A stretch of DNA of 64,000 bases from positions 1,302,001-1,366,000 of the forward strand of contig OZ237742.1 in NCBI GenBank assembly GCA_965178125.1. Reading direction: 5' to 3'. Positions 16,977 to 63,000 of the stretch are shown here, in pieces; positions within the stretch are counted from its first letter, which is position 1; every line of letters begins with the position of its first letter. This stretch comes from Bilabrum cf. latius (lineage: Eukaryota). Under the pieces are notes generated by a model, which saw only the letters and a program-made list of their open reading frames with translations, searched no databases and was not told where the DNA came from. A program made the translations under genes and the position numbers.

Positions 16977-17074
16977 TATGAGGACCTGTGAAATCGTCGT
17001 TGATCGGCACGCGACGGGTCAGAAAGAGAGGGAAGCCAAATACGATTGGATCGGCTTGAGTCCGCGGGTGGCGC

Positions 17075-27890: not shown

Positions 27891-30800
27891 TCAGCTCCCA
27901 TCCCCGGCAGTCGGTAGCAAATGTCCGTCCCCACCGGATGGTGTCGGATGGGCTCGCCGCGGACCGGAGCTGACAGCGGGCCTTGCCGGTCCAAAGTGAC
28001 CGAAACTGTTTGACGCAGTTGCCCCCGTCCTTTCTTGCTTGCTCTGCAGTCTACCTGCCGTGAGTGCTGCTGGTCGCGATTCCGACCCGTCACCAGGCTC
28101 CGCAATGTTCGGGATTACCGATGGGCGTGCAGTGCTACTGGACTCAAGCAGCTGCTGCCTCTTGTCCTCCCGCCACACTTGAACACCGGTGTACAGCAAC
28201 ACACCGCCAGCCACGAAGTTCACAGCACACAGTCCCAGAGTCACAATCACGCTCGTGCCCTGCAGACGGGACGACAAAGTGCCCTGACCCCCAGTCCCCA
28301 CTAGAGTGTCCCCATCCATCCCAACCAACGAGCCGTTCCCTCCACCCTGCTCCTGCAGCATTCCACCACCACTGCCGCCATCTCGTTCACCGGTCAGACC
28401 CGCCGACTCCAGCTCGGCCGCCTCAGACAGCGCCATGTCCTCGCTTCGCAGGTACATGACTGAGAGCACCTGGGTCATGGTGAGCGCCAGCAGACACACC
28501 AGCTCTGCACGGTTCAGCAGCAGCTGCTCGTAGGGGTAGTACAGAGCGTGCAGGACGAGCGCACCTACCGAAATGCTGATGGACAGCAGCACGGCATTGT
28601 ATGGCTCCGTGACCAGTGACCCAATGGCCACGATGGCAACCTTTTTTACCATCACAAGTGACTCCCAGGCCTGCATGCTCCGACCAATGTTGTACCCACT
28701 ATAGAGGAACCCATACAGCTCAAAGAAAGCATCGTTGTGCCGCAGAATGTGCGAATCTGTGCGATATAGCAAAGTGCCGACTCCAATAGGCAATCCCAGG
28801 CCAAGGATCAGCAGCACTGCACCTGCCCCTACCTGCAGCCCGACGTGACTCCCTTCGTGGCACTCTATGCGCAGATCGCGCTTGAGGTACACCCTGCCTC
28901 CGATTGCATCTGGCAGGCAGTCAAAGACCGACAAGGCCATGGAAGACACCACTGTATAGGACAGGCACGCCACCAGCACGGCTGTCCCCATGAAGCGAAG
29001 ACCCAACAAGTACTCCAGCAGAGCATCGAGAGGTCCAACTGCACCGCCGCTCATGGTAGTTGGCTGCGATGTCGGCAAAGGTAGGGGATCTCCAACAGCT
29101 TGTAGAGGGTTTTCCATGTTGAAGCCTATTCCAGTATCTCCCGCACGTAAAGTTTGAGGTTGACTCGAAGCTAGAGATTGGCGTATGGAGGTCTGCGTCA
29201 CTGGTACCTTGGCAGTTTGCGCGGCTTCACCACAAAATACGTCGGGTCTGCTAACAACCCGAGGCTATTCAGTAGGCTAGAATGCCGACTTGCTCGAGAG
29301 TGTGGACAGTTTGCGACTAGCACCTCGAGATCTACCACCCGAAAGACCTCTGTCTCGACGCTTGCACCGCTGCGATATGCATGCCGTTGCTGATGAACAG
29401 ATAGACAAGCCTGTGTGTCGCACCTTCACCCCTGCGAATGCCTCTACAAGGAATGCTAGGAGGTTCATCACAATGGCTACCGCACTCACTACCACCGGAA
29501 ATAGAATTGCTGTGTAGAACACCGTGTAGAAGCTCGGACGTACCGCACACTGCAAAGGGCTGCCTGCAAACAGGCTTGATCCTGCTGTCTCGGTCCATCC
29601 CATCAGCATCCGGAACGTCTCTGTCCCCTTGGCTTTGTATAGCCCCAAAGTGCCTAGCGCTGTCACGTAGTTCATGCCGATCCTAAACACCACTCCAATG
29701 CGCTTTGATCGACTCTGTGCCTTAAGCACTGCAACGTAGAAGATACCAACTGCTAGTGCTAGCACACCTAAGCCCACCAAGGCCCAATTACGTGCCAAAG
29801 AACCGCACTCAACGCATTCTCCAGGTGTTGAGCTGGCCCCGAAGCCCTTCTCTTCGTCGCATACAGCACAGAGGGGACCTGAGTGTCCCTCTGCACAGGC
29901 CAGCACCCGTTGGTCTCTGTCAATGACACAAGCCTCTGCGTGAAGGCACTCGTGCACCTCGGACTCGGCCGTGAGCAGCCTTTCTCCGGTACTGGCATTG
30001 ATCATAGGGGATGACCCGTCATCGGGCACCAAGTACCACCCCTTCCTAGGCAGCTGCAGGATTCCACCTGCGCACGACGCGAATCCCAGCTCATTTGGAC
30101 AGGACTTGCACGCCTAGCCGTCGCCCCCGAGAGCGTACGACAGAGGTGGACAGTCCCCGCACCGGACCCCTCCCAACCCCGTAGGCTCGCTGCCTGGTCC
30201 ACATGGCTATACCTTGATGCGACTACGGATCGGTGTTCCCGGCATGCGCACCGACTCGCCACGGAAGCACACCACCTCAATATCGTATGTCATCCCAGCC
30301 CTGCCCAGAGCAGCGATAGCTGGCCACTCCACCAGCCCCCCCCGTGCCACTGCAGAAGGATTGAACAGGAGCACCGAAGGATCGTCCGATAGCAGCCTTG
30401 CCTCGCAGCTCACGTGCACCTCGTCCACGGCCCGCACAGGTGGGTCCACTTCAGCGTGCCCGTCCCAAACCGTGACTATCTCAAGCGCCATTTCGAACGG
30501 TTCCTGGGACTACACCGATACTGGAGGGTTTACAGCCCACCGAGCCACATCACCACGCATCCTGACCTCAGCTCGATGTAGCACTGACTCGCCGCCTTGC
30601 TCCCGGAAGCACTCCATTTCAAGGGCAAGGGCCTGCCCATAGTCCGCCTGCAGCACCAAGCGATCCAGTGGGACCACACCTCCGAGCGATATGATTGCTG
30701 CCCGCTCCAGTGAATCAAGGGCCGCAACCTCTGGAAGCAGCTTGCGTGCTGGCAGACCCGCTGATCCCGTGAGTGTTGCGGCGTGCTAGCTGTCGGGGTC

Positions 30801-33800
30801 CATGCCCAGCTGCTCCATCCGAGCCTAGCGCTGGTCCAGCTGGAGATCCAGTACATCAAGATCCACGGATGGCCTGTAGCCCCCAGCAGGAGGCACCAGC
30901 AAGGCTGCAGTCACCTGCGTGGGATCCTAGCTCCCATCGTGCTCTAGCGGTGGCCTCACCCACGGCCGAGATGCATCGTCAAGGAGACTTGCAGCCTCGT
31001 CCAAGCGCACGATACACTGCGCAGGAACGGGCCTACCTTGTCCGTCTGTATCCTGCAAACCCACAGCCCCGGCAGGTCTGATAGGCAGCGGCTGCTGCGG
31101 CGTGCTGGGCTTGGCCACGGTGCCTGGCGATTGCAAAAAACTCAGTTGAAGCTCAGGCAGTTTCACGTGTAGCTGCGGACTGACGACGATGCGTTCTGAC
31201 AGCTGACACTACACTACCAGCTGTGCCCTTGATCCTCTATCTGCCAGTAGCTGCATGCACAGCGTAGCAATGGAAGCACCGCTTCCACTTGCTTGCACTT
31301 GTGGGCGAGCAAATGTGAAAGCTTCTCCGCCTTTCAGCCTCGCTGCCTCGTTGCCTCCACTCGAACCGGCCACAGATAAGCTGCAGCTAGTTGCAGCAGC
31401 CTCCGTTGGCGACAGCGGCACGAATACCAGACCACCAAATCCATCCACATACGACTTCGTAATGCTCACCGCGACCGGGTGTGTATCGCCATACAGCACC
31501 TTGAGCGGAGAGCTCGCTTGATCATTTCCAGAGACATCTGAGGCCAGCAAGTCCACGGCCTGTTCCACAGCAAGTGGATCAGTTGCCGGGCACTGTACGG
31601 TGGACGAGCTATAAACATCGTTCACGTGCGTCCATTCAAGAGACACGGTGGGCACCTGTATCTGCAGCAAGCTGCCTGTCACGGCACGCGAGTTGCCCTG
31701 TGACACCCTCGGGCCGTCTCGCGATCGCACTGCCCCTCCAGTCAGCCACTGGCATGTGGCATCCACAGTGCTCACGCTGTCGAAGTCAGATGCCACGCCC
31801 AGCGAGTGAGCCTGCGCCACCGCCGGCAGAGCACTCGACGTCGTGCACGCGGCGCCCGAGCGCTGATCCCGCTGCCATGGCTCGGGCACCGGCACGGTGT
31901 ACATGCGGGTCCAGCCCACAAGGTCGCCATTCAAGATAGTCCCGGGATCCGACAGCGAAGATGTCGACACGCGCAAGGCATCGCATCGGAGCCTTGGCGA
32001 GGACTCGCACGTGCTGGCATCGGGCCCGCCCAGCGCCTGCCATCCACCCACAGTCGCCATGGATCGATGCAGCCGCAGCAGCGCGGTCGCGGTCTGGTTG
32101 GCCTCTTGCAGCTGGCCAGCTCGCGCTGATTGCGTCCTGCATCTCAGACTCAGGCTCGCATCCTGGCCGGCCTCAAAGGCGCCAGACTACGGCGCATCCC
32201 ACAGCCCCGGCCACGCATCCGTCAGATTGCACGGCAGCACCATGCTCACCACCACCCGAGGAGCTGGCAGTGCCGGCTGCAGCTCGGCATCGGTCACGCG
32301 CACATCCGGAGCTGACCCGCTCAGGATGTAGTTGCGGCTCACGCTGGGCATGGCGGCAGTCGGCGCCACCGTGTCCACGGACGCCTATTGACCTTCTTGC
32401 TGACCCGCTGCCGTCAGCAGATCATGCGCCGCGGCTCGCCACGCGTCCAGCTCCCCGCCCTCGCCCGTCCACCAGCGCACCGCCATGGGCGGCACCAGCG
32501 CCAGCAGGTCCGATGCCTCACTGGCGTGGGCAGAGTGCATGAAGGTCTCGCCCGTGATCCACGTGGCCTCCACAGACAGGTACGCCGCTCCGCCACGGTG
32601 CATGGCGGTGTCCAGCTGGTCCGCGCGCAGTGTGGCCAGCCCGACACGCTGAAACCTCGCCGCCCATTGCAATGCGCTGCTGCCCAGCCCCCGCACCAGC
32701 GGCCGGCTGTCAGAAGCGTTGGCAAGGACGATGCTGGAGGCCGGCAGCGGGGCGCGGTCGGTCTGGGACTCACGGCCTGCCACGAGGTGGGGCATGATCA
32801 GGCGGCCCGGCCACTGGTGGTCAGATCGTGTCGCTGCTCCGGGGGTCTTGCGCAGATGCAGCTGCACCTTGGCGGCTTGCTCGGAGTCCAGGCGGGAGCT
32901 GCCGCTGCGCTGCATTGTCCCGCGCACCAGCAGTCTGTCGAACGGAGGCACCGCACTCACCGTGGCCACAGGCGCTGGCACCAGCCCCAGCACCTGCCCC
33001 TCGGGCTGCACCTGACCGACGACCTCTCGAGGAGTGGAAGAGGTGTCCTGGTCGAGGCTGTGCGACCAAGGAGCCACAACCACCACAGGCGCCATGGATG
33101 CGTTGCTGGATCTGTGCGCCGCGCCTTGCGCCACTGTGTCGGCGATCTGCGTGGCCATGCTGTCTCGATCCAGGGCCACCGACAGCGGCAGCACGTCTGC
33201 TCGCAGCAGCGGACGCACGGCTGACGGGGCCCGCATCATGCTGTACGTGCCTCCCCATGCGCATCGAGCTCCGAGCACCACCGATGATGACGACGATACG
33301 CCGGCTATGCCCACATGCGGGAACTGGACACGCGCCACCCCACTGCTGGACGACAGGCCCGTGGTGGCGTTGTCCACGGCCCGGAGCTGTGCCTGGGCCT
33401 ACTGCAGCTGGGAGGAGCCCAGGCCCTCCTGATCTGCCCAGGCACCATCGTCGACTTCCGCTTGCAGCGTGGCGGTGGCGGCGTGCAGGCCTGCTCCGGC
33501 CGGCAGCAGACTGCTTGACGGCGCCTCCGCATCGCCTAGATCCTCCCACGCAGGCACGCCGTCCCAGGAGATGTTGCCCACCAGACGGGGAGACTCCAGG
33601 TTGCCCCCTGCAGCCGCACGACCCGCTGCGCCATCCCGCCACGGGGCCCAGGCTTCCAGTGTCAGCGTGCAGCTGATGCTGGTGGCATACTGCAGCAGGT
33701 CCCGAGATCCCACGCCGCTCACCTCCAGCACCACCTCGGGTGCTGGCGTCAGTGGCTGCACGTCGCTGCCGAGACTGGGCAGCGCCGAGGGCCAGTCGGG

Positions 33801-36800
33801 GACGGACTGATCGTCCATGAGTGCGGGGCGAACGAATGGCAGGACGGCAGCAGGAGCAGCATGCAGGGCGCCGATGCCAGCCAGCGAGTCCAGCAAAGGG
33901 GCCAGGGGATGCGGGGGTATCCACGCGGTGATCTGCGATCCTGTGCCGAGGCTCTGCGGCGACCGCCATGGATACAGCCACTGGCTTGGGCTTCTACGAT
34001 GGGGAGGCATGGATTGTGCGACTGCGCGATCGGCTTGGACAGCGCCTGCCGACCCATGCATGGACCATGCGCGCACGGCCCATGCCACAACGGGCACCTG
34101 GATCTGCAGCAAGCTGCCTGTCATGGCACGCGAGTTGACCCGAGACACCCTTGGGCCGTCTCGCGATCGCACTGCCCCTCCAGTCAGCCACTAGCATGTG
34201 GCATCCACAGTGCTCACGCTGTCGAAGTCAGATGCCACGCCCAGCGAGTGGGCCTGCGCCACCGCCGGCAGAGCACTCGACGTCGCGCACGCGGCGCCCG
34301 AGCGCTGATCCCGCTGCCATGGCTCGGGCACCGGCACGGTGTACATGCGGGTCCAGCCCACAAGGTCGCCATTCAAGATGGTCCCCGGATCCGACAGCGA
34401 AGATGTCGACACGCGCAAGGCATCGCATCGGAGCCTCGGCGAGGACTCGCACGTGCTGGCATCGGGCCCGCCCAGCGCTTGCCATCCACCCACAGTCGCC
34501 ATGGATCGATGCAGCCGCAGCAGCGAGGTCGCGGTCTGGTTGGCCTCTTGCAGCTGGCCAGCTCGCGCTGATTGCGTCCTGCATCTCAGACTCAGGCTCG
34601 CATCCTGGCCGGCCTCAAAGGCGCCAGACTACGGCGCATCCCACAGCCCCGGCCATGCATCCGTCAGATTGCACGGCAGCACCATGCTCACCACCACCCG
34701 AGGAGCTGGCAGTGCCGGCTGCAGCTCGGCATCGGTCACACGCACATCCGGGGCTGACCCGCTCAGGATGTAGTTGCGGCTCACGCTGGGCATGGCGGCA
34801 GTCGGCGCGACCGTGTCCACGGACGCCTATTGACCGTCTTGCTGACCCGCTGCCGTCAGCAGATCATGCGCCGCGGCTCGCCACGCGTCCAGCTCCCCGC
34901 CCTCGCCCGTCCACCAGCGCACCGCCATGGGCGGCACCAGCGCCAGCAGGTCCGATGCCTCACTGGCGTGAGCAGAGTGCATGAAGGTCTCGCCCGTGAT
35001 CCACGTGGCCTCCACAGACAGGTACGCCGCTCCGCCACGGTGCATGGCGGTGTCCAGCTGGTCCGCGCGCAGTGTGGCCAGCCCGACACGCTGAAACCTC
35101 GCCGCCCATTGCGATGTGCTGCTGCCCAGCCCCCGCACCAGTGGCCGGCTATCTGAAGCGTTGGCAAGGACGATGCTGGAGGCCGGCAGCGGGGCGCGAT
35201 CGGTCTGCGACTCACGGCCTGCCACGAGGTGGGGCATTATCAGGCGGCCCGGCCACTGGTGGTCAGATCGTGTCGCTGCTCCGGGGGTCTTGCGCAGATG
35301 CAGCTGCACCTTGGCGGCTTGCTCGGAGTCCAGGCGGGAGCTGCCGCTGCGCTGCATGGCCCCGCGCACCAGCAGTCTGTCGAACGGAGGCACCGCACTC
35401 ACCGTGGCCACAGGCGCTGGCACCAGCCCCAGCACCTGTCCCTCGGGCTGCACCTGGCCAAAGACCTCTCGAGGAGTGGAAGAGGTGTCCTGGTCCAGAC
35501 TGTGCGACCAAGGAGCCACGACCACCACGGGTGCCATGGATGCGTTGCTGGATCTGTGCGCCGCGCCTTGCGCCACTGTGTCGGCGATCTGCGTGGCCAT
35601 GCTGTCTCGATCCAGGGCCACCGACAGCGGCAGCACGTCTGCTCGCAGCAGCGGACGCACGGCTGACGGGGCCCGCATCATGCTGTACGTGCCTCCCCAT
35701 GCGCATCGAGCTCCGAGCACCACCGATGATGACGACGATACGCCGGCTATGCCCACATGCGGGAACCGGACACGCGCCACCCCACTGCTGGACGACAGGC
35801 CCGTGGTGGCGTTGTCCACGGCCCGGAGCTGTGCCTGGGCCTACTGCAGCTGGGAGGAGCCCAGGCCCTCCTGATCTACCCAGGCGCCATCGTCGACTTC
35901 CGCTTGCAGCGTGGCGGTGGCGGCGTGCAGGCCTGCTCCGGCCGGCAGCAGACTGCTTGACGGCGCCTCCGCATCGCCTAGATCCTCCCACGCAGGCACG
36001 CCGTCCCACGAGATGTTGCCCACCAGACGGGGAGACTCCAGGTTGCCGCCTGCAGCCGCACGACCCGCTGCGCCATCCCGCCACGGGGCCCAGGCTTCCA
36101 GTGTCAGCGTGCAGCTGATGCTAGTGGCATACTGCAGCAGGTCCCGCGATCTCACGCCACTCACCTCCAGCACCACCTCGGGCGCTGGCGTCAGTGGCTG
36201 CACGTCGCTGCCGAGGCTGGGCAGCGCCGAGGGCCAGTCGGGGATGGATTGGTCGTCCATGAGTGCGGGGCGAACGAATGGCAGGACGGCAGCAGGAGCA
36301 GCATGCAGGGCGCCGATGCCAGCCAGCGAGTCCAGCATGGGGGCCAGGGGATGCGGGGGTATCCACGCGGTGATCTGCGATCCTGTGCCGAGGCTCTGCG
36401 GCGACCGCCACGGATACAGCCACTGGCTTGGGCTTCTACGATGGGGAGGCATGGAGTGCGCGACTGCGCGATCGGCTTGGACCGCGCCTGCCGACCCATG
36501 CATGGACCAAGCGCGCACGGCCCATGCCACCACGGGAGTCCGTACCTCAGCCGCCTCCATATGAGGAAATGCTTGTATGGGATTTGGCCACTCGCATTGC
36601 ATCCCCAGTTGAGCTCGCCAGCCTAATGGCATGGATAAGCCAATCATTGGCATCCTACTGCCGATAGCTTTGTTGGGCTCCATTGCAGGCAAGGTGATGG
36701 ACCCGGCTGTATCTGTCTGGAAGCACGTCCACCCTTCCAAGGCCACAGTTCCTGGCGCAGGTTGGCCAGCTAGCAGATCTGCATCGCTCAACTGTGAATC

Positions 36801-39800
36801 CGGACCGGCGCCAGTAACCACTACTACGCAACTAACGTTGGATCGGTTCACATGCGTGCTGAATTCCATCGAAGGCCCAGCTTCGTCTGAGACCAGTTGC
36901 ACTTGCAAATGTGGCGACATAGACGAACTTCCTGCTCTGTTGATCTAGTGTTGAGACAAGCAAAGGCCGTTCCTATCCAAGGGTGCTAGTTGCTGCTTAC
37001 CCTGTGCAGCGACAGGCAATACTACTGTTGCAGTATGGTTGCCGGGATGCGGATGACCAACGTGCACTCGAGCCCGAATAGACGCAACACGAGCTAGAAC
37101 CACCACAGGCTCCGAGGAGATGCCAAGCAAGCTGGTTGTGCATACCATAGACAGCCGGAGTAAGTCGCCCATTAGCGCTTGCACGCCGTAGGGCAATACT
37201 TGCAGCTGTCCTGTCACGCTCGATGGGGCATACGAACGGCTTGAATCTACTGGCAACACGACTGACCTGGAAGACTCATCATGGCCGTATGTGGCCTGCA
37301 CGCTGCATGCAACCCCGTATCGCTGGCTGTCTTCCCCAGATACAGGCTACTGAAACGCATCTAGAAGCCCCGCCACAAGCAAGGGGTCACTCGTCTCGAT
37401 GCCTGGCAAGAGTGGAGTGGATGCCCGCAGGACACCCTCCGTAGTATCCGCTGTCTCGAGCACGTACTCCACATCTAAACTCCGCAAACCAGATCCAAAC
37501 GGCTTCATCTATCTCCAGATGCTGCCCTACTGACCCATCTCGGTGGTATTGATCCAGCCATGGCCAGCCTCGGTGGCATTGAGGCCAATCCACTCCGCCC
37601 CAAGCCACGCATCAAGCACCGGGGCGCCCAGAAGCGGTGTCCCGAGGGCCTGAGCCCCCATGTCCTACCCAAGAATACAACCCTAGCAAGCCTCAAGCGC
37701 AACCTGCCCGCCAAGACAAGTCCTAGACTCCCATGGTGATATTGACTTGGTATCATTGCCTGGCTGCGCCGCCCAGGCCGCCGATCCACGACACACATTG
37801 GCAGAACCTACGGCTGTCGGTGTCGCCGGAGTTCCAGAGGGGTCTGGATAGAACAACACGCTACCAGCATTGGATACAGCTCCCGTAACCGCAATCCGAC
37901 TTGTTCTCACCTCTTGCACAGTGCTTGCATCCACAGCGAGAGCCCCGCCTCCTTGTGCACTAGTGGATTCTATGAGCACGTCGTGGAGGACTGCGGGCAC
38001 GTAGTCGCTGCTTGATGTGAGCATTCTAGACACAGATACCCCCCCACCTTGCCCTGACATCGTATGTGTCGAGGGTGCTAGATCTGTCTCCTCTTGAATG
38101 GTGCAGTCCTTGATGGCGACGTGCTTCAGCTCCAGCTGCGCCATGCTATCAGCCAGCAGACACCCGCCCCTCGCCCACGGTAGACCCACTACCGCCCCCT
38201 CCGCAAGTGCACACAGACCTCGAGGCAAGCACTGGGAGGTATTGAAGGAGCGTGCGCCTGCCATTGCAACTAGTCCACCTCCTGGCACAATGTGCTGCAG
38301 ATTCAGTGGGGCCAATACCTCGGACTGCATCAGGGCACCAGTGCTGGGTTGCACAATCTCAAAGACTCCATGCTCTGCTTTTGTGGTATTGTACGCTTCC
38401 CCTAGTACTATTCCATCCTGGATAGTTACAGGGGCCACCATGGTAGCAGTGGACTGTTTGCCCGTGTGCATCCATGCGCCGCCCAAGGCACTAGCTCTGC
38501 AGCTCCTCAACAGCGCGTGAGGTCCGATCTGAATCGAGGTGCGGACAGTCGCCAGACAGCCACCGCCGTACTGCCCATCGCCCGGAACAGACACCCTACG
38601 GCTCGCATCAGGCGACATGGCCACACAGTATCGCAACTGAGCCCCGTCGCGAAGCACAGACTACCGACTCTCATCATCTTGCAGCGACAGACACCCGCCT
38701 GTACCATCCCAAGCCACACCTCCCTCCAACAACGAGCCAGCAATCCTCACAGGTGATTGCTTGGCCAGCATGATACCCCCGGATCCACCCGTCATGCCGT
38801 GCATTAGTTGCGAGCCAGGCTAAACCAGGACTTGGACCCCCTGCACAGCAACAAGCCCGCCACCAGACACAAAAGAAGAAAGACTGCCAGGCATAGTCGC
38901 TGCACTGCCCCTCTGAATCACAGAGTTGCCACCAATTATTAGCTTGGCCACCGCAGTAAGGGGCTACAGCTCTTCTATAGGTAGCACGTGCACAGGGCCT
39001 TCAGGTCGAATGGTATCCTGCCAGTGTGCCAACTGCCAGGACTCCTGGTGAGCATCTCTCGACCAAGGGCCTGCAGCTTTCGCCAACAAGCAAGCGAGAC
39101 TAGAGAATGCTTCGCGCCATTCACGAGTTTGTAATTCACCACCAAACGTGGTATTGTCAGCTGGTATAGTGCTGTTTGAACTTTCTTGTGAGCAGTACGA
39201 GTCGATAAGATCTGGAGTACCACCGCACTACTTGCTCATCCTGAACGCCATCGATAGCCCTGTAGCGGCCAGCGATCCCGCTTCGCTGCTTTCCGTAGAT
39301 ATCATATAGTCTATCCACCACGACCCGTTGAAGTATTCCTGACATGCGGCGGTGTTATTGAGGAGCGCCGGCCTCCCCGCACTTGCACGACTGTCTCTGA
39401 GCAAGGCGCCGCCCAGCGACGAAGGAACATGCTACTCCAGCTCAGCCTGTAAAACAGGTGCCTGTGACAAGTTGCACCGATTTTGCCACATCCTATCCAC
39501 AGACGAGTTGGCAACTCTATCCACAAAACACCGCGACGATCGGCGTCTGGGCAAGGAAGTCTACTGTGCAACAGACAAAGCGAGCCTCAGCCTCGTCGCA
39601 TGCTCCTGCACAGGGTCGAGCTACGAGCCCGCTGATGCTGAAGCCGCGTTCCAGTCCACCAGCAGACCAGACTATGCCAGTGTGTCGGCAATTGCAGCGG
39701 ACGGCACCTTACCCATGAAAATGGCACCACCTCGCACTGGCAGGGGCGGTCGCAGCTGCTGGTCGCTTGCGAATAGTCCCACTCCGGTGTCGCTGATTAT

Positions 39801-42800
39801 CGAGGGTTGTCCCTGTGACTGTCCCGGCCGCGTCAAGTCCGAAATACTAACAAGTGCATCTCCATGAGCTTGCATCGCAATGGCGCCTCCCATGCGACCA
39901 CCCAGTACCTTTGCGATTTTTGACGTGCCTGTCCACGGACTTGTGGCCAGTGCTGCAACACTGGACCCGCACACTGGCTGTGTGTCAGTCCAGCTGCGTC
40001 TGCCCATGTAATGCTAGCCAACCTAATGGTTAAATACATCGGTGCTTGAAACCGCTTCAAGAGATGTTGCATTCCATGGAACGCAAGGAAGCTGGGACTC
40101 CGAAGAGGCTTGCTCGCCCTGTGGCTGGCATAGCTGTGAGTCTTGCATTTGGGAAATGTCGTTTGAATCTCCAGGAATGCAGGGTGGATTACCGACGAAT
40201 GAGTGCTGGATGGTGCTTCCCATCATCTCAAGAGTAGCTCTGATGAGTCGAGTCAGTGGGTCCGGTAAGCTAGATACAAGGGCAACCCCCCCATTCCTAC
40301 GGATAGGGCCTCGCTGGGTGCTGCCAAGCGGCAGGCGAGCTACTTCTAGCAACCCGCTTGTCGCCTCCAATGTGAGGATCACCTGCTTATGTTTGCTACT
40401 CAATCCTGTCAGGGAATTGATCGAGTCGACTATGGAAGTCACGTTGGCAGCATTCAGCCTACTCACGAGGAGCTTGCTCCTGTCGGCATTGCTGCCAGAA
40501 CTGCTTGAGGTGGGAGGCAGCTGCAGAAGTGCTGCAGCACCACCGGATATCCTTCCAATCGTCTGTGAAATTACAGTATCCTGCAGTCGGATAGATACGC
40601 GTCCATTGTGCAAGCCGACGGCTGCTAAAGCACCACCGATAGTCCCAGCGTAGCCCCTGTCTATGTTGGAAGACGACACTGAGATCAAAGCACTCGGTGA
40701 TACTGTTTGCTCATACTCTCGTGGCCACACGGAGTGCAGGGACTGCAGCAGTGCAATGCAACCGCCAGAACCGCCCATGGCACCACAAGAGGAAACTCTA
40801 GAAAACTCCACTGACACCACAGCACTCGCTGTTGATGCAGCCTACGACTGCACAGAGACGAGTCCTCCAGCACCAAACGCACTCACTGCCCCCCTCATGT
40901 TGCTCTATGATATTCGCACGGATATTCCAGCCGCAGTAGCTGCACGGTCGCCATTGCCCATGTATGAAGTGACGGCCACAGCACCCCCATCCCAAGCGCT
41001 GGCTGGACCGGACGTCATGAGCTGGGACATGCCCAGCCCCAGCCCACGATAGGCCAGTCGAGCAGAAAGCAAGCCACCTGAGGCGTAAAGACGGCTGGGT
41101 CGAGCCTGTACTTCTGCCTGGAACCTATGCAGTGATCGATTCAACCAAACCAGATGGTCCCAATTCATCGAGGAAAACGAGCGGCTGATGCACTGGAAGT
41201 GCGTTGCGCGCTAATCCTTCAATAGCTGTTGCAAAGCAGATGGTTCTTGCATGGTCGCACCGCCTACTAGCGCATTGGACGTGTCTAGCATGCTTGTCAC
41301 CTGCATCAAGGCCGCATGATCGCACTGTCGGAGTGCAAGCATGCTGCTAGCATCCATATTGAGTGCAGCAGATTGGTTGATCCTCAGAAGTGCCTAGGCC
41401 CCCACTGATGCCAACAAGCAGGCATCTCCAAGCAAACAGCTATCGATCGAGTTGTTATACGAATATCCATGCTAGGCGCGCTAGTCCAATGTCTGGAGCA
41501 CCTGCAGCGACTCTGAAACCGTCAACTGAGACTCGTTTGACGCAGCCAGTAAGGGATCGCTGTCCGAAGTAAGTATTGCGTCTGTAATGAGCACTCCAAT
41601 GGATTCTTTCCGAGAACTCTCACTAGATGGCTTCCACATCACGCGGCCTCCTTGCCCCAAATCCTACTTACTAGCTGCCACCAGCTTTGGCCACCAGTCA
41701 GAACTGGCATCAACTGGTATCATACTACCATCGACCAGGCCGTCTCGACCCGCGGCGTGCTTCCAGGCTGGCAAATCGTGCACCGCAAGTAGCCGAGGTG
41801 GCAGCAGTGCCCTACCTAGAGATGCGCGTGCATCGGCATAACTCCCATTGCTTCCAATCTGCTGCATGACAGCATGCAGTCCAGATTCCTTCACTTTCCA
41901 TGAGTTGGAGATACGTACATCTGATACGCTGGACATACTCACCTAGTCCACGTCATAGGCTCTAAGCAAGCTACCTTCTTCATCTCCGCATGGTTCCTTC
42001 GCATGCCCTACCACAACTTCCCCTGCTTTGATTACAGCCTGCTTCCACGAGCTCAAGGCACCGCACCACGCTGGTGTTTGAGAACGAATCGACAGCACAC
42101 GGCTCATGGTCACCTGTGCTGCTCCTGTCACCGCCACTGCAGCTCCGATCGAGGCCAGGTGCACTGACTGGTTCGCTGGCTGCCATCCCACGCCCTGCTG
42201 CCGCTAGATGCCCGTGCTATCGACCAACAGCAGGCGACTAATGGCAACAAGTGGAGCCAAGGAACCTTGGCCCTAGAGTGGGGGGTTGTGCAGCCCGATG
42301 AAGCTTCCAGTCAGCTGCATGGTTTGCAGGGAATCTATCATGACTACTCCTGTGGCGTTGCTGCTCGTATTGCCCACCAAGTCCACGGCAAGTGAGTCCG
42401 GTGGTGGCACGACATCCAGGAGGGTGTTTGCCAGCCACTTATCACACATGGAGCCATGGATTCCACGGCAAGCGTCTCTAGCCGTCTGCCCAACCATGTG
42501 TCCAAGCCTACGATCGGCGGTTCCAGAGGCTCCCATGGGCAATCCGGTCCTGGCACCTCGCACGACGACGTCTTCCACTGTCACTTCTGCCACGCTCCTG
42601 AGAGCCAACACCTGCATGGGCTGCAACAGTCTCGATGCATCCAGCACAAACGAGGAGTCTAGCCGCACCCTGGAGGCCCCATCAACTGCCGCTACTGCAG
42701 GGGCGGGCCTTCTCCCCATGGCCCCGAGCAGCATGGACCTGGCCTTGAGACCCAAGGGTGTATGCAGCGCGCTCGTATTGTATCCCAATAGCCTGACTGA

Positions 42801-45800
42801 GTCGCCACTAGAAGCATTCTAGCTGTATATCACCCAAGGCCACTCTCTCGATGGGCCTGAGGGTGCTGATACCACACAGGGGGATAGAACCTAGATTCCT
42901 TGCATCCACACATTAAAGCCATATATTGGAGGAACAACCAGTCCCGTTTCCGAGGAATCCACACACTGTTGCTCTCCATCGTGCTGTAGGTTGCACTGTG
43001 CGCTTACCAGCAGGATCGCAGCAGCTGGTTCGTAGCCTGCTGTCATCCTGGCTGCTGCGTGGGACAAGCCCTGTCTTGCTGAGACCTGCAGCAAGCGCAC
43101 GGATGGCTACTGTCTTGTGTCTTGACTGGCATACAATGCAATGGGAGCTAGTGGGGACACGAGAGGATTCCGACTGGAGGTGTACGTCTGTTGCACCTGG
43201 ACAAAGTTGACGCCTATCACGAATACGTCTACCCCAGGGCCCACTTCCAATTGCAGAGCAGCTTGACCGGTCCATGGCCACGCAGTAGAAGCAAACGACA
43301 AGCTCCCCAGCCTGGGTGACACGTCAGCAGAACTGCACAATTCCATCGCGCTACTCGAATCCCACTGTTGATTCTACGCGGATGCACTGCTAGGTGCGGC
43401 ACTCCTCTCCCAGCCTGCAGCAGTCTCGCGAGCCCACCCGAGTCGAGATGAGGATAACCCACTACTGGATGCGCGCGCTGCCCATGATTCCATCACAGTG
43501 TCGGCAAAATCGCCCAGACAGTTGTAGCATATCTTGGTCTAGTTCACGTGTTCCAGGAAGGCGGCCCATGCACCTAGCCCCATCACCTCCAGCCCTTGCA
43601 CAGGCAAGACGGCAGGTGAAGTCTGGTTGGAAGGAGAGCTTGCAAGAGCTGGGGTAATGCGCAGCTGCTAGTACCGATGATCACTCACCGTAGAGGAGAA
43701 CGAGGCAGGGTTAGCGACAACGACCACTCGAATCGGCGTATCCTCTGGTATGGAGCCCCCATTGAGGCCGTTCCGGATGTAAGAATCGGCAATGTGAGCC
43801 AAGGATTGGCAGTGCGGTAGATATTGCATCAGCTCCATGGGGTCTTCATACAGTGCCTCGACATCACCGACTGTCACATTGGCTGCCTCCGCCCCTCTCA
43901 GCTCCAGCATCCTATCGATCGCATTGAAGTCGCACTTGGCTGGATCTGTCTGGCTTCGGTCTAGTACGACAGTCCGTTGAATGTCTACAAGTGGCCCATC
44001 GCTTTGCCGTTGGGGCGCCTTGATGACCTTCTCTGGGGGAAGCACATTCTTACCGAAGCATCTCGCACGCACTTGGTTTGAAGGCTGTACCATCACGCAT
44101 GTGCCTCCCTTCGATGCTGCCACTGCCACTACATCTGCACTACTTGGCATCGAATTGGACCTACTCCAACAGCCCATACGTGCGTTGAGCTCCTGCAGAT
44201 GGGCTGTGTTCTCGTTTTGCTCGCCGAAGCACACTGGGCAGCCCGCCTGCGTCACCACGCACACGTGACTGTCGCTGCAGGACAGGAAGCGGGAGGGTAC
44301 CGCAGGCCCAGCTGGTCCGGGCTGCAGCATTGCTGGCACATTAGGAGTATCTGCTGGATCCATACTAGCGCACCGGATTGCACCCAGGCTGTCAATGGAA
44401 CACGCATAGCCGCTGGCTGCACACATACCAGATACCCTGGCCGCTCCAATTGTCACGCTGATAGACTGTGCAACAGCCGTGACGTTGGTATCAACAGAGT
44501 CTGTGCTGCTCCAGCATGCCACATGCGACCTGTTTGTGGCAGATGCAGCGCAGCAGATGGACGACCCGCACTCCACGCCCCAAGCTTGCATGGGCACATC
44601 CACTTGTCCAGGCTCCTCCGGCACATGATCGGCAAAACCTAGTGCCTCGGTGGACGTCCCTAGGCAGGTCAAGTTGTGGGTACCGACGCTTGGATCAAGC
44701 TTCGGCATAGATACAGCGTGGGAAGCATTCACGGCAACCGAAACCGCATGGGATCCTACGTCCACTGCGCACACAGTGCCTCCTGATGTGAGGGCAAGAG
44801 GGCGCATGGGTCCGATGGCTCCAGGCATGGCAGCTGACGGGGCCAGCATTGCAGGGTGAACGGCCAAGTGGTTCGTTGGAATGGCATTCGCTCCAATGTA
44901 GCAATCCGCGAGAAAGCCTGTGGAGGATTCCACGATGCAGACCGCCCCATCCTCGACTCGTACAAAGGCGGGATTCATGGCTGCTCCAGCGTTCAATGCA
45001 TATGAATCTGAGATTCCTGAAGCTGTCCGGCCTACTAGCAGGCGGAGTGAAGCATTGCGAAGACTAGGCTGCGAGTTGTCGTCAGGGCGGAACTGAACCA
45101 GAGCGATAGCCACGCTGGAGTCGGAGGCAGCAGAGACCCCTAGTTCTCTTGCCACTAGGTTTAGTACATGCGCAGAGCCCATTCTGTAGGTCTGGGAACT
45201 AGATAGGATATCGACAGGGAAATCGACAGAACCCGACGCACTATCCAACGTCCGAATTGATCCAAAGCAGTAGATGGCAAGGCTGTGCTTTCGCTGTGCA
45301 CAAGTGGTCGAATATCCAACTGCAACCTGCGATTACTAAGATAAAAAGTGCATACATCGGTTCAAATTATTTTGTGACCCCATCACTTGGCGTGAATACG
45401 CGACAAGGTATCTTCACGCGTGTCTCACCTGTACAAAGTCCCCAGACACCTCACGAGGGGCCTGGCCGGACCAATCCGATCCCCAGCATCGGATGCGCCC
45501 CGACCGCTCCAAACCGCACGAGTGCGACTACCCGGCGGCCACCTGCGTGACAGCATAGGATGCATTCATCGACGGGAATGATCGCAGTGATGTAGCATAA
45601 GAAACAAATACGCACAATCCACGGACACACCACTTGCGATCGTGCCATCCGTCCCGACCAACCACGATTCCCGCACTAGGGCCATGCAGAGCCGCGTGGG
45701 TCGGATTCTGTGCTCGCGCATATTCCCATGGCTGGCACATGGCTTGCACCCAGCTCGGATTGAGCAATGTGGTCATGTCCGGGGCCAGGCGCGTAGCGAT

Positions 45801-48395
45801 GGACGGCTCAGGCAATGGTGGTAGTCGCTGTTGTACGCGGATTGGGTACTGGTGCCTGCGTCTCACCTGTACGAAGTCCCCAGACACCTCACGAGGGGCC
45901 TGGCCGGGCACATTCGCTCCCCAGCATCGGATGCGCCCCGACCGCTCCACGCCGCACGAGTGATAGCTCCCAGCGGCCACCTGCGTGACAGCATAGGATG
46001 CATTCAGCGACGGGAATGATCGCAGTGATGTAGCATAAGAAACAAATACGCACAATCCACGGACACACCACTTGCGATCGTGCCATCCGTCCCGACCAAC
46101 TACGATTCCCGCACTAGGGCCATGCAGAGCCGCATGGGTCGGATTCTGTGCTCGTGCGTATTCCTATGGCTGGCACATGGCTTGCACCCAGCTCGGATTG
46201 AGCAATGTGGTCATGTCCGGGGGCCCGGCGCGTAGCGATGGACGGCTCAGGCAATGGTGGTAGCAATTGTTACGTCTCACCTGTACGAAGTCCCCAGACA
46301 CCTCACGAGGGGCCTGGCCGGAGTGATTGTATCCCCAGCATCGGATACGCCCCGACCGCTCCACGCCGCACGAGTGCGCGTACCCGGCGGCCACCTGCGT
46401 GACAGCATAGGATGCATTCATCGACGGGAATGATCGCAGTGATGTAGCATAAGAAACAAATACGCACAATCCACAGACACTGTTGTATGTACTCGGACAT
46501 CAGGGTTGAACCGACGGGGAGCAGAGGTGAGCCGGAAGACGAGGTGGGTGCAGGAGGACAGGAGGTGGAGAAGAACAGAGGGGGACACCGGCACAGGCTA
46601 CGATAGTGCGGTGCCATCGCGAGAACACAACGGGAGGATGGGTGCTCCAGGTGAAAAGGCACGAGGGAGACGCGAGTGCCAGCGGGCTGCATGGCCAGCA
46701 GCGCGCAGAGGGCCAATAGGCGGGTGGACAGATGGGACGCACGGCCGGTCGGCCAGGATCAGCGCGTGCAAGCTGAAAGGATGGGGCCAAGGTGGCAATG
46801 CATGGAGCAAAGCACACGGTCCCTTGGGCGGGAAACAGGAACAGGAAGCTATGTAGCGACGAGGCCAGTCGCGTGCATTGGGAAAGAAGCGTGTACATTC
46901 GTAGTGTCAGATGAATACCGCATTCAGGTGGGCTGGGGGAGAACCAGTCGTTCGGGGTGAAGCCCAGTGGATCTGCGCCATCCGTCCCGACCAACTACGA
47001 TTCCCGCACTAGGGCCATGCAGAGCCGCGTGGGTCGGATTCTGTGCTCGCGCATATTCCCATGGCTGGCACATGGCTTGCACCCAGCTCGGATTGAGCAA
47101 TGTGGTCATGTCCGGGGGCCGGCGCGTAGCGATGGACGGCTCAGGCAATGGTGGTAGTCGCTGTTGTACGCGGATTGGGTACTGGTGCCTGCGTCTCACC
47201 TGTACGAAGTCCCCAGACACCTCACGAGGGGCCTGGCCGGACCAATCCGATCCCCAGCATCGGATGCGCCCCGACCGCTCCAAACCGCACGAGTGCGACT
47301 ACCCGGCGGCCACCTGCGTGACAGCATAGGATGCATTCATCGACGGGAATGATCGCAGTGATGTAGCATAAGAAACAAATACGCACAATCCACGGACACA
47401 CCACTTGCGATCGTGCCATCCGTCCCGACCAACTACGATTCCCGCACTAGGTCCATGCAGAGCCGCGTGGGTCGGATTCTGTGCTCGCGCATATTCCCAT
47501 GGCTGGCACATGGCTTGCACCCAGCTCGGATTGAGCAATGTGGTCATGTCCGGGGGCACGGCGCGTAGCGATGGACGGCTCAGGCAATGGTGGTAGTCGC
47601 TGTTGTACGCGGATTGGGTGCTGGTGCCTGCGTCTCACCTGTACGAAGTCCCCAGACACATCACTATTCGCTCCCCAGCATCGGATGCTCCCCGACCGCT
47701 CCAAACCGCACGAGTGCGACTACCCGGCGGCCACCTGCGTGACAGCATAGGATGCATTCATCGACGGGAATGATCGCAGTGATGTAGCATAAGAAACAAA
47801 TACGCACAGTCCACGGACACACCACTTGCGATCGTGCCATCCGTCCCGACCAACCACGATTCCCGCACTAGGGCCATGCAGAGCCGCATGGGTCGGATTC
47901 TGTGCTCGTGCGTATTCCTATGGCTGGCACATGGCTTGCACCCAGCTCGGATTGAGCAATGTGGTCATGTCCGGGGGCCCGGCGCGTAGCGATGGACGGC
48001 TCAGGCAATGGTGGTAGTCGCTGTTGTACGCGGATTGGGTGCTGGTGCCTGCGTCTCACCTGTACAAAGTCCCCAGACACCTCACGAGGGGCCTGGCCCT
48101 AATAATTCGATCCCCAGCATCGGATGCTCCCCGACCGCTCCACGCCGCACGAGTGATAGCTCCCAGCGGCCAACTGCGATAGAGTTTGCCGTACGCCTGT
48201 TGGTGGCGAATAAATAGCCGCGGCATATCTGACGGTTTTGCGTGTAAACGTCGTCTCCCGGCAAAAGCAAAGGAGGCTTCGTGAGTACCACCCAATGTAA
48301 CTCACTGTTGCCTAGATCAACTTGCCATGGCTTGATCTAATTACTGAGAGCCAAGCAGCAAGCCAATAAAAGATGAAATGTAGTACTCTTAGCAT
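27891..48395 (-). CDS. giant (~6,000 aa) cell-surface/membrane protein: signal peptide, RCC1/BLIP-II repeats, GGA-motif beta-helix-like region, Cys-rich repeats, C-terminal multi-pass TM domain
   Basis: ATG at 48395 (MLRVLHFIFYWLAAWLSVIRSSHG), then six RCC1 exons and a 17.4 kb last exon (45326-27891). In that exon 23 ORF-track fragments share one frame, and every gap I translated contains only TAG. Motifs: GGCIAL, GGALAA, GGAIF, CGDCPPLSY...CKSCP, CAEGHSGPLCAVC, FDCL...YLKRDLRIEC, YGFLYSGY...WESLVMVKK, YYPYEQLLLNRAE. TGA at 27891. Confidence 0.82.
31650..36535. repeat. tandem in-frame duplication, 2 x 2442 bp (814 codons), inside the giant exon
   Basis: Constant 2442 offset (31651/34093, 32385/34827, 33399/35841, 34081/36523). 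Near-identical peptides appear in the ORF track. Confidence 0.96.
45429..48173 (-). repeat. tandem array of ~440-bp exon+intron cassettes, each exon one RCC1 repeat
   Basis: Exons at 45429-45542, 45867-45980, 46281-46394, 47200-47313, 47639-47734 and 48060-48173 (V/LAAGxxHSCGxERSGxIRCWGxxxxGQAPREVSGDFVQ). Each has CGCAG| acceptor and |GTGAGAC donor in phase 0. Introns are nearly identical to each other. Confidence 0.92.
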
Positions 48396-49799
48396 TGTTC
48401 GAAGGCACGATGGCGCGCGGTCTTGGGTTTCGAAGGAGTGCGATCACTTTAGTTAGGCCAATAATATTCAGACCCCACCAAGGGGCGCCGGCGGCCCGGG
48501 GGTGGTAGCCACCTCCGGAATTCTGACGCCCCCCCCCCCCCCCGACTTCACAACGAACCTCAAGCAACCCCTGGGATCCCCGCAGCGAACTACTCTCTAT
48601 CTCAATGGATTCTTGACCACATTCCTCGAGGAGTCTCCGACTGTTCGCCGCAAGGCACTCTCCCTGGGAATACCCTTACCGCTGGCTATCTCCTGCCAGA
48701 TACCCGGGGTGGAGACAAGCATTGGATCGTGGTCCTCTGGCTCTACCTAGCGCAAGGTGCTCAGACGCCTAGAACGCCGACTCGACAAGGCATGGACAGT
48801 TCGGCTCGCCTCGGCAGCACATGCCACCTCACAACTCAGACGAATTCATGGCCACTCTATCACGCCGACGTGCGTGGTGGCGGCGACCTGAAACATTGAC
48901 GGTGCAGGCAGCATCAATCGCGATCTGCCCATCACCGTTCGCGTTCCCCAGATACTAAAGCAGTTTTGGGGGATACCGGTGCCACAGCGACCGCTGTGGT
49001 TGGGTGCGAGGGCTTGTCCCGCAACAACCCGCCTGTTTGGATTTCTGCTTTTACTATGTTAGGTGTTCTACCGCACAGTACGAGTAGTTTTTCGGATTTT
49101 CGAGTTGTGTGTTTGTACACTGTCGTGAATTGCATCTTATGCCGTGTTTCGAAAATGCCGACGTAAAAGTGAGGTGCAAGTTGCAAATCGAAACACACAT
49201 TTTTCTGCAAACAGCGTCTACAAACGTCAACGACCAAAGTTCGCAATTGATGCACTTAAGAGCACTCAGACTGCATGAATCAATGGGAATTACATTATAG
49301 ATGGAGAACTGGCTTGGTTGTGCAAGTTTGATGCGACTCTCATGCCTCAACTGCAGCTGCTGGCACTCGCTGCGTGGAATCACAGAAGGATACACCACTC
49401 CATTTCGGGCAATCAAAGCGATTCATACTGATATTCAATTGATTTAAGTTGCATCGCTCCCAACAAGCACCACTCAAAGTCACTTCGCGAGGTTGGCAGG
49501 CATCACCATCCGTCCAGCATGGGCTCTCTCCGTACCTCGCGTGCCGATTTAAACCCTTACACCAAATCAAATGCCACAATCATAATTGAAACATGATAAT
49601 GTTTATATTTATGGCTCGGCTTGCATGAGAAGTGTATTTGAGACGCCGGCTGCTTCGCAGCCGTTGGGACGTCATTTGCCTATGCATTTTTGGTTGTCGT
49701 TTGGGTTTCGGTCCCCGGGCCCAAATCAAAAAGACAACCCAGGCGTTGTCTTTTAGGGGGGTTGGGTGTAGTTTTACGAGTTTCGAAACACGGCATTAA

Positions 49800-51030: not shown

Positions 51031-51842
51031 TTCCTTCCACAAACGCTCGTGTTTTCTGGTTTCGGTTTGCTCATTCGGTCGTTTGATGCTGAAATATGGT
51101 GTACTGAATTTAGCGCGTTTTTGGGCCGATTCTGGCGCGAGATGGGGGACAGTAATTCTGCCATCAGCCATAAGCTCCTATGCCATGCTGCATTGCTCAA
51201 CTTTTCTTCTCCCAAAGAAGGCTTATTACTGTTATTTTCATTCGAGTGTACCCACGACTTCGATACCGAGAACTTTCGGCTAGTATTGCTGAATTCCATG
51301 ACATGGCCAGGATTTCGAATCAACTTTGCCATCTCGATTTTCTCGGGCTATTTAACACCGATTGTGCTGCTACTTCGTGATTATATACTTTCGCACTTCT
51401 AGTATTCAATGGTATCAAGGATTTTTACAGTCGTCCCAAAAGGTAGGCTCGACCAGCTTCACGGCCCACCGTCGTTGACCCCAGAAGCTGCGGCAACTGC
51501 ACCTGTGGACTCTGCCATTCGCGCCACGAATGCGCGCTGTGCAGCCCCCGCAGACGCACTCAAGTCCCCTACTCATCTTACCTTTCTAGGACTGCCTGGC
51601 GTATTTGCTAATTCCTATTTTGCGAGTTCCAGGTCGCGTGCTTCTTGTCCCAGTCTCTGGTAGGCTTCCACGGCTCTCCGCTCCCTCTCTTGCAAGCCGC
51701 GAATGGCCTCTGCAGCTTGCGCAAGTTGCCCCCGAAGCTGTACTCTGGTATCGCACTGTATGTACTCGAGCCCTAATGCTCCGTACCGCTGCCTCACCAG
51801 CTGCGTGTTGGTGGGGGCGGGGTCTACAGCCGCTGCAACCAC

Positions 51843-62744: not shown

Positions 62745-63000
62745 TCGGGACGCTGGGACTGCCTCGAGTTGTTCACGCAAAAAGTATGCGCATGGCGACA
62801 GTCCTGACTAGAATATGACAGTTTGTGGCTAGCAATTCGAAGAGGTGCGATTTCAACCGTCATTAGCAGGTGTGTGATGAGTGACTATAGGTGGTGCTTC
62901 CGATTGGCGGAAAGACGCCTATTCTCAACAGTAGCACACATTGTTGCCTCGGTTAACAACATAATCATATTTTTCTACTATTTTGGACGCTTGAAGAGAA

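Follow-up and report, generated by a model that had tools for sequence, protein, structure and literature searches.

Between positions 45,327 and 48,395 of a 64,000-nucleotide stretch of DNA from Bilabrum cf. latius (contig OZ237742.1 of assembly GCA_965178125.1, positions 1,302,001 to 1,366,000; the window, whose own numbering is used throughout) lies an array of six nearly identical exons, each encoding one repeat of a predicted beta-propeller. We think it somewhat better than an even bet – a probability of about 55% for the reading as a whole – that this region forms the 5′ portion of a single expressed gene, whose product is a giant secreted, membrane-anchored protein, and that the array has been shaped by concerted evolution of exon-plus-intron units together with selection for diversity on one face of the propeller. 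On this reading six symmetric phase-0 exons would encode six blades of an outermost CRINKLY4-type propeller (RCC1/BLIP-II superfamily). The evolving unit would be an exon with its downstream intron, about 420-440 bp in all, and unequal crossing-over and gene conversion would keep the introns and the blade scaffold near-identical. Selection would keep or drive differences at five loop residues per blade, namely two in the G-x-x-H turn after strand 1 and the three x of a CWG-x-N-x-x loop after strand 3. The face that carries them would be the probable ligand-binding surface, with specificity set blade by blade.

The gene is on the minus strand, and a pattern scan for exons flanked by ...CAG on the acceptor side and GTGAGA on the donor side returned exactly six. 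Five are of 114 nt, the second (E2) is of 96 nt through an 18-nt in-frame deletion, and all six are in phase 0. They are spread over three genomic frames, and the lengths of introns I1 to I3 are not multiples of 3, so that a continuous protein requires splicing. An earlier note on this DNA had proposed six phase-0 exons with one RCC1 repeat in each, and both the scan and the Pfam RCC1_2 matches bear it out; it had also described a giant exon bounded at 45327, and here the exon itself stands but its true start is 45326. In the list of features below, X5 and X6 are two of four public sequencing runs (X1, X2, X5, X6) that were examined as k-mer contigs; seven such runs contain part of the stretch, none of them recorded as RNA.

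First coding exon (exon 0): 48306..48395, minus strand; 90 nt, 30 codons, ATG at 48395; 3′ end set by joints in X5 and X6 contigs.
Intron 0: 48174..48305, minus strand; 132 nt, GTGAGT...CAG; sequence unrelated to the array introns.
Cassette exon E1: 48060..48173, minus strand; 114 nt; LAAG-SY-HSCGVERSGSIRCWG-SNY[TAG]-GQAPREVSGDFVQ; RCC1_2 37.6 bits, cassette profile 86.8 bits.
Intron I1: 47735..48059, minus strand; 325 nt, GTGAGAC...CACGCAG.
Cassette exon E2: 47639..47734, minus strand; 96 nt; VAAG-[TAG]S-HSCGLERSGSIRCWG-ANS-DVSGDFVQ; RCC1_2 36.1 bits.
Intron I2: 47314..47638, minus strand; 325 nt; RNA fold ordinary (z -0.19).
Cassette exon E3: 47200..47313, minus strand; VAAG-[TAG]S-HSCGLERSGRIRCWG-SDWS-GQAPREVSGDFVQ; peptide the same as that of E6.
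Intron I3: 46395..47199, minus strand; 805 nt; array intron plus an insert of ~481 nt (about 46480-46975).
Cassette exon E4: 46281..46394, minus strand; VAAG-YA-HSCGVERSGRIRCWG-YNHS-GQAPREVSGDFVQ.
Intron I4: 45981..46280, minus strand; 300 nt; 25-nt deletion near the 5′ end.
Cassette exon E5: 45867..45980, minus strand; VAAG-SY-HSCGVERSGRIRCWG-ANVP-GQAPREVSGDFVQ; acceptor 45980 used in one X6 contig joint.
Intron I5: 45543..45866, minus strand; 324 nt.
Cassette exon E6: 45429..45542, minus strand; peptide the same as that of E3, one synonymous difference.
Intron I6: 45327..45428, minus strand; 102 nt, GTGAGAC...CGCAG; unrelated to I1-I5.
Giant exon: 27891..45326, minus strand; about 5,811 codons, 17.4 kb; stop TGA at 27893-27891.

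Differences within the array are distributed very unevenly. Introns I1 to I5, which share the ends GTGAGAC...CACGCAG, differ from one another by 4-11 mismatches per 299-325 aligned bases (77 in 3143 overall, or 2.45%), and the earlier note's description of almost identical introns holds for these five, intron 0 and I6 being unrelated. At the nucleotide level the introns are 96.3-98.8% identical and the exons 86-99%; the blades they encode are 81-100% identical to one another. Two short sites hold most of the exon changes. With TAG read as Q, the residues that follow AAG are, from E1 to E6, SY, QS, QS, YA, SY and QS, and those that follow CWG are SNYQ, ANS plus the deletion, SDWS, YNHS, ANVP and SDWS, an exact match to the variants that had been listed before. 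The two sites correspond to codons 5-6 (patch 1) and 22-25 (patch 2). Together they make up 18 nt, within which fall 16 of the 25 variable columns among the 114 of the exon (hypergeometric P 2e-11; 2.6e-8 when corrected for every choice of two windows). Over all pairs of exons these 18 nt show 106 differences in 235 comparisons, or 45%, against 62 in 1385, or 4.5%, for the remaining 96 nt; the variable codons have a Nei-Gojobori proportion of nonsynonymous differences (pN) of 0.52, compared with 0.03 in the other codons of the exon. The claim that exon changes concentrate at two sites had come with a proposal to compare exon with intron divergence, and that comparison, once run, gave 45% versus 4.5% versus 2.45%. 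Codon 23, in patch 2, is always N or D, which leaves five truly free positions per repeat. A mutational process of the kind used by diversity-generating retroelements, or otherwise specific to A, was considered and dropped, the changes in the variable codons taking in all four bases.

Evidence that the units have exchanged sequence came from pairs of sites at which all four combinations occur. Such four-gamete violations were found at exon 9 with exon 46, exon 9 with intron 255, exon 46 with intron 255, and intron 133 with intron 319. Recurrent mutation is an unlikely cause at 2.5% divergence: the units have recombined or converted one another several times. The violations uphold the earlier description of variants as mosaically combined and, lying in exon and intron sites, lend support to the exchange between units that had been inferred from it. 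The same peptide had been reported for the exons at 47200 and 45429 (E3 and E6), and indeed these are identical at 113 of 114 nt, the lone difference being synonymous. Swapping of whole units or half-units between blades would reshuffle the loop variants in just this way, with E3 and E6 identical in both loops and E1 and E5 sharing patch 1 but not patch 2.

Further copies of the cassette, for which a search had been suggested, did not come to light in any of three places. A six-frame scan of the window with the cassette profile found the six exons only (each with an E of 3e-19 or lower, and E 0.46 for the hit ranked after them); among 8000 scored database proteins, 7710 of them at E<=0.001, none was closer than 64% identity to a repeat; and an exact-pattern scan of metagenome contigs gave 0 cassette matches. 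As to the introns themselves, the insert in I3 has no counterpart in I1, I2, I4 or I5. In DNA run X1 its summed contig depth reaches 8,000-30,000, compared with about 85 in the unique flanks, and variant letters and loose ends abound there, which probably makes it a dispersed high-copy repeat or a small transposable element. For the array contigs the summed depth in X1 is about 320-360, against some 85-89 in the flanks; this would point to 3.6-4.1 copies of words present three times in the window, but depth is no measure of copy number and the figure is given no weight. Mobile introns of the introner type were considered for the array intron and dropped, since it gave, unlike the I3 insert, no sign of spread, a judgement made on depth figures of doubtful value.

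As to the nature of the repeat, the Pfam family RCC1_2 (PF13540; cut-off 22) matched single-exon frames at 36.1 and 37.6 bits and a read-through frame of three exons at 102.3 bits. When a profile of the repeat was compared with solved structures, the ectodomain of Arabidopsis ACR4 (7a0j, E 3e-11) and Physcomitrella CR4 (PpCR4; 7a0k, 1.7e-9) came out on top, followed by BLIP-II (2.2e-6), HERC2 (2.8e-4) and RCC1 (3e-4). Both results agree with the RCC1-type assignment made at the outset, and a more precise one can be offered. The motif C-x9-CWG is present in all six cassette exons, with a period of 38 amino acids (32 in E2), and both of its cysteines align with cysteines of CRINKLY4 (CR4). Judged by its sequence, the cassette is a CRINKLY4-type 'crinkly' repeat, with one predicted cysteine pair per blade. 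Repeats of this kind, of about 39 amino acids with the pattern C(X~10)CWG, also occur in unicellular green algae (PMC4617170), and in CR4 itself they form a seven-bladed extracellular propeller of three-stranded blades, in which every blade has one disulfide and one face carries a putative ligand groove (10.1101/2020.08.10.245050). The gene is predicted to encode a CR4-type propeller but no CR4 receptor kinase: a Pfam scan of the giant exon at E<=0.01 revealed no Pkinase domain, and its C-terminal part has several hydrophobic segments rather than one.

As a structural proxy for the blades we took the homologue P0170, a database protein 63% identical to the repeat over 95% of the repeat, whose AlphaFold model is of good quality for residues 41-530 (block means of the predicted local distance difference test, pLDDT, of 71-98, mostly >90). 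The model has 14 blades, each of three strands and a 13-residue linker, and superposes on ACR4 (7a0j) with a template-modelling (TM) score of 0.77 and a root-mean-square deviation of 3.2 Å. Read in its register, the cassette comprises strand 1 (FVQVAA), a G-x-x turn (patch 1), strand 2 (HSCGVE), an RSGR turn, strand 3 (IRCWG) and then x-N-x-x (patch 2), which opens the linker. The intron position falls inside strand 1, between FVQ and VAA. An exon therefore corresponds to one sequence repeat and not exactly to one structural blade, and the earlier equation of one exon with one blade holds in the first sense only.

In the same register strand 1 ends in the turn that forms patch 1, and strand 3 runs straight into patch 2. 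Because strands 1 and 3 are parallel, both patches would sit at one end of the blade, which puts them on a single propeller face, a placement that is a topological inference from the proxy and not a reading of coordinates. The variation among the blades of P0170 points the same way. Among its 14 blades variability peaks at positions 8, 9, 16, 25, 27, 28, 35 and 37 (entropy 2.8-3.3 bits). The variable residues of the cassette are the equivalents of 8, 9, 25, 27 and 28; positions 16, 35 and 37, which belong to the turn and linker at the opposite end, are invariant in those cassette exons that have them. Strand topology and this face-restricted pattern, as seen in the P0170 model, favour the earlier suggestion that the variable residues share one face. 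BLIP-II contacts beta-lactamase through loops equivalent to the variable patches. In UVR8 the x-x of a G-W-R-H-T motif supplies tryptophans and arginines that make the chromophore and dimer contact (PMC4501546), and these two residues, between the G and the H of GWRHT, occupy the same positions as cassette patch 1.

Such a pattern could in principle be no more than the product of a recent tandem amplification and then neutral drift at loop codons free of constraint. Beta-propellers are often amplified anew from single blades (PMC9218822), and the variable positions of the cassette are among the most variable in P0170. Yet unconstrained sites cannot outpace introns, and the loop codons exceed the introns by 45% to 2.45%, which contradicts drift. 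Plain lack of constraint would also have let both ends of the blade vary, whereas positions 16, 35 and 37, equally free in the homologue, are unchanged here; and the four-gamete violations signal exchange rather than simple descent. We consider drift highly improbable.

A different possibility is that the blades are old and have fixed identities, their loops tuned to a single invariant ligand, so that purifying selection shields the loop codons from a homogenization that overtakes the rest of the unit, and individuals would not differ from one another here. The divergence, exchange and face data fit this view equally well, and one genome cannot separate protection from diversification. The semi-conserved N or D at codon 23 would then be ordinary constraint, and the known CRINKLY4 propellers belong to conserved developmental receptors, not to immune ones (10.1101/2020.08.10.245050). 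However, identical loops in E3 and E6, and a patch 1 common to E1 and E5 alone of their two patches, indicate that loop sets are copied between blade positions, and E2 tolerates the loss of six codons beside patch 2. Moreover the divergence is confined to islands of 6 and 12 nt within tracts that are homogenized down to their synonymous sites, which is hard to achieve by protection alone. Fixed identity, the main rival, is possible, though in our view unlikely.

Whether the array is spliced as predicted was addressed with the public runs, using a run likeness threshold of 90 and a rule that a contig bridging a joint must have 31 letters on its shorter side. X5 and X6 come from one study with no recorded library type; they are classed by guess as RNA for X6 and 'probably DNA' for X5, and X1 and X2 are DNA-like. 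A joint from 48173 to 48306, which skips 132 letters bounded by CT..AC on the plus strand, is present in X5 at depth 16.5 and in X6 at depth 3.9, with a shorter side of 31 in both. It is the predicted intron 0 exactly (GT..AG on the gene strand) and provides good evidence of splicing. Two others are suggestive. In X5 only, at depth 15 and with a shorter side of 30, a joint from 45324 to 45427 skips 102 letters between CT..AC; with the cut moved by +2 it becomes 45326/45429, the borders of I6. In X6 a contig with a shorter side of 28 joins a cassette donor, placed at the end of E3 (47200), to the E5 acceptor at 45980. None of the three joints appears in the DNA-like runs X1 and X2. In X5 and X6 the bins consisting of array intron alone lacked cover whereas those with exon sequence had it, a contrast that does not count as evidence under the rules of the contig mapping. 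One more X5 joint, from 45962 to 45911, 'goes back 52' letters; it probably reflects a path through words common to the exons.

Taken at face value, the X6 contig skips E4, and might suggest that regulated skipping or choice of cassette exons yields propellers with different sets of blades. All the exons are in phase 0-0 and share the same donor and acceptor sequences, as such a system would require, and the earlier note had allowed for in-frame skipping. But E3, E4 and E5 share the same final 39 nt, so that this sole internal joint, of 28 letters, fits the three ends alike and may equally be an ordinary E4-E5 junction; exon skipping gains nothing from it. Contigs specific to E4 are found in both X5 and X6, and a propeller tolerates few changes in blade number. 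Nor did the array intron yield any selector or docking structure: it folds no better as RNA than its shuffles (z -0.19), and Rfam gave no match at E<=0.1 over 45000-48600. Isoform choice as the source of diversity strikes us as improbable.

The reading of TAG is central, as in-frame TAG codons occur in four of the six cassette exons (E1-E3 and E6) and in exon 0: without TAG as sense the array would not be coding. The giant frame gives the clearest view of its use. With TAG as sense it stays open over 5,813 codons, between 45332 and the TGA at 27893-27891, and under the standard code it is broken 48 times; beside those 48 TAG there is no TAA and no internal TGA. The two alternative frames of this stretch contain 128 and 74 TGA and 14 and 15 TAA. 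Given CAA/CAG of 88/193, use of TAA on the pattern of TAG would yield about 22 TAA in the giant frame; 0 are observed. Most other long frames in the window also require read-through of TAG. TAG here behaves as a sense codon and TAA and TGA do not, which makes a TAG-only code a possibility. A reassignment described in print for the green lineage, in Ulvophyceae, involves TAG and TAA together (PMC2984419).

These codons also feed the suspicion that the array is an artefact or a pseudogene, either collapsed or expanded in assembly or made of dead exons cut by TAG. Short k-mer contigs cannot give the number or the order of the units, and so cannot confirm either. Against this, a 17.4-kb frame with 48 TAG and no TAA or internal TGA shows TAG to be read; splicing both into the array and out of it is seen in contig joints; variants specific to E4 and E5 recur, without differences, in contigs of other runs; and the unique flanks continue into the array from both sides in X1 contigs. 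We find this explanation hardly credible.

The earlier note had translated TAG as Q, which is reasonable but unproven. The sole hint lies in an 814-codon tandem duplication within the giant exon, whose copies (36536-34110 and 34094-31668, minus strand) have one TAG/CAG difference between them. The copies differ at 76 of 2469 nt and at 58 of 809 compared codons; 42 of those 58 keep the same residue if TAG is read as Q, and both copies are apparently under purifying selection. Other frames gave no clue to the residue: the TAGs of a tubulin-tyrosine-ligase (TTL)-like frame and of a DUF2817 frame fall outside conserved blocks or lack a solved relative for comparison. There is no tRNA gene in the 64-kb window. 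A Rad51-paralogue-like frame (3698-5473, minus strand; Pfam Rad51 E 7.8e-23) has at codons 381-409 a low-complexity run of eight tandem CAA TAG GAC AAx, reading QQD(N/K/S) and built around TAG. With TAG in all eight copies, the run is uninformative on the residue.

At its two ends the predicted protein has features of a secreted and anchored product. The N-terminus in exon 0 is hydrophobic and resembles a signal peptide (codon 28, at 48314-48312, is an in-frame TAG), and the C-terminus of the giant exon has several hydrophobic segments resembling membrane spans, as judged by eye from the translation. Between these, the giant exon has a degenerate crinkly repeat at its start, then 5-7 more within its first ~430 residues, and proceeds through the 814-codon duplication to a Cys-rich stretch. 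Scanned against Pfam in three pieces, its 5,813 residues matched 0 families at E<=0.01.

How many blades the head of the protein contains depends on these degenerate repeats. The first was claimed as a seventh repeat and is indeed there; it is degenerate (C-x10-CFG), however, and its profile match is weak and not significant alone (i-E 0.16). The pattern C-x(9-13)-C-[WFYA] is matched again at giant-exon residues 130, 258, 309, 356 and 410. The head of the protein would probably have 12-14 blades, six from the cassettes and 6-8 degenerate, possibly forming two propellers as in P0170. With 6-8 repeats beyond the six cassettes, the single seven-bladed propeller that had been envisaged is not established. 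For the first 552 residues of the giant exon a word search found no relatives, and full HMMER returned 6 proteins at E<=0.001: four weak RCC1_2-rich proteins and two true but fragmentary relatives, P0219 (53% identity) and P0220 (37%). Atlas RCC1_2 clusters at 0.88-0.89 for the same residues fall under that resource's 0.9 line and serve as a lead only. An AlphaFold model of the segment had a mean pLDDT of 42.9, with six three-strand groups and no reliable propeller. The two relatives (171 and 353 amino acids) together tile giant-exon residues 126-543, and P0219 ends close to the point, after residue 552, at which the window has its first in-frame TAG; a gene caller that took TAG for a stop may have split the relative's gene.

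Several considerations weigh against concerted evolution with selection for diversity. Only one genome copy is at hand, and in a single copy 'diversifying' and 'fixed blade-specific' residues look alike. The pairwise counts are not independent, E3 and E6 being a recent duplicate, although the contrast is still about twenty-fold. The shared face is deduced from the strand topology of a proxy, not from coordinates, and the poor model of the start of the giant exon leaves the closure of the blades into propellers uncertain. Two of the three splice joints fall below the 31-letter rule, the likeness threshold stood at 90, and the library type of X5 and X6 is unrecorded. No other cassette copy that might have served as donor or partner was found in the window, the 8000 scored proteins or the metagenome contigs. 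Finally, the whole account depends on the translation of TAG, and the residue it encodes is not proven.

Proteins that diversify by reshuffling near-identical repeats include fungal NOD-like receptors (NLRs), brown-algal ROCO proteins, transcription activator-like (TAL) effectors and lamprey variable lymphocyte receptors; we know of no such repeat-reshuffling receptors described for CRINKLY4-type propellers or for green-lineage algae. The nearest structural relative, CRINKLY4 (ACR4/PpCR4) of land plants and green algae, shares with the predicted product a repeat of some 38-39 amino acids, two Cys per blade, an extracellular N-terminal position behind a signal peptide and, in the proxy model, three-stranded blades (TM 0.77 on 7a0j). 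Unlike CRINKLY4, the gene has no kinase, single-pass receptor architecture or TNFR-like domain detectable with Pfam at E<=0.01; its blades are 81-100% identical and not highly diverged, every repeat sits in an exon of its own, and extra degenerate blades follow. BLIP-II and UVR8 have the same fold and repeat motif as the cassette and bind their partners through one face, but lack a Cys pair per blade, have diverged blades and show no cassette gene structure.

The mode of evolution finds its closest parallel in the HNWD genes of Podospora anserina (het-d, het-e), in which WD40 blades undergo concerted evolution and four surface residues per repeat are positively selected (PMC1805685); other 'highly internally conserved' repeat receptors belong with them (PMC2873952). 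In both systems the blades are near-identical in DNA, variation is restricted to a few codons per repeat, on an interaction face there and a probable one here, and repeats are reshuffled; here we find near-identical repeats with exchange, and variation in a few codons that proxy topology places on the same face. The HNWD blades differ in being intracellular WD40 blades of NLR-type proteins, in lying within one exon, in belonging to an exchanging family of 10 genes and in repeat-number polymorphism, whereas the present array has an RCC1/CR4 fold, a predicted extracellular position, an intron in each unit and a single known locus.

In gene structure the resemblance is to brown-algal ROCO genes, in which each leucine-rich repeat (LRR) is encoded by one 72-nt phase-0 exon, exon shuffling has been proposed and selected residues lie on the binding face (PMC3341825). 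That likeness had been pointed out before and is apt: in both systems each repeat has a symmetric phase-0 exon to itself, with a set length of 72 nt in the ROCO genes and 114 nt in this array. The ROCO arrays differ in encoding an LRR solenoid in cytoplasmic GTPases, in occupying many loci and in having inactive cassettes in introns or on the reverse strand; intron near-identity is not a stated feature in the part of that paper available. No spare or reverse-strand cassettes of this sort turned up in the six-frame profile scan of the window. Among highly repetitive propellers, RCC1/BLIP-II is the third most populated group, mostly bacterial with few eukaryotic members (Pereira and Lupas 2022, PMC9218822). 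The present array resembles these amplified propellers, its median blade identity being far above their 60% threshold, but intron-containing units and face-restricted variation are not described for the RCC1/BLIP-II cases in the available text of that survey.

If strains prove polymorphic, the locus would offer a compact case of introns acting as homology tracts for the exchange of blades, and its product would become a candidate self/non-self, mating or pathogen-recognition molecule. It offers a natural experiment on the residues that set specificity on the CR4/BLIP-II propeller face; which residues of the plant ACR4 face do so is, to our knowledge, still an open question. A bolder extension, and one we hold to be distinctly unlikely, is a germline 'repeat-variable residue' propeller, in which the five surface residues of each blade would be an exchangeable specificity module, the introns a recombination substrate, and strain-specific alleles would differ in the sets and numbers of their blades. 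By analogy, this would be an extracellular, intron-assisted counterpart of the HNWD allorecognition repeats or of the variable diresidues of TAL effectors, in a lineage not known to have any such system, and the TAG codons, which fall in the variable patches of E1, E2, E3 and E6, would mark recent changes of fast turnover. There is also a practical consequence: the gene is unannotatable unless TAG is read as sense, and standard pipelines will miss or truncate it.

Elsewhere in the window, long neighbouring frames lie at 58332-62852 (minus strand), 14577-17018 (minus), 19973-24007 (plus), 8013-10193 (plus) and 24083-26833 (minus), all with long low-complexity inserts. They match a polyglutamylase of the tubulin-tyrosine-ligase-like kind (TTL E 8.6e-51; TTLL6 among solved structures), DUF2817, two proteins with a pectate-lyase fold and, at a weak level, JHY. 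At 51838-52171 (plus strand) an 18-nt unit is repeated in tandem 18.6 times with 99% matching, and in one frame would encode PPATPA repeats.

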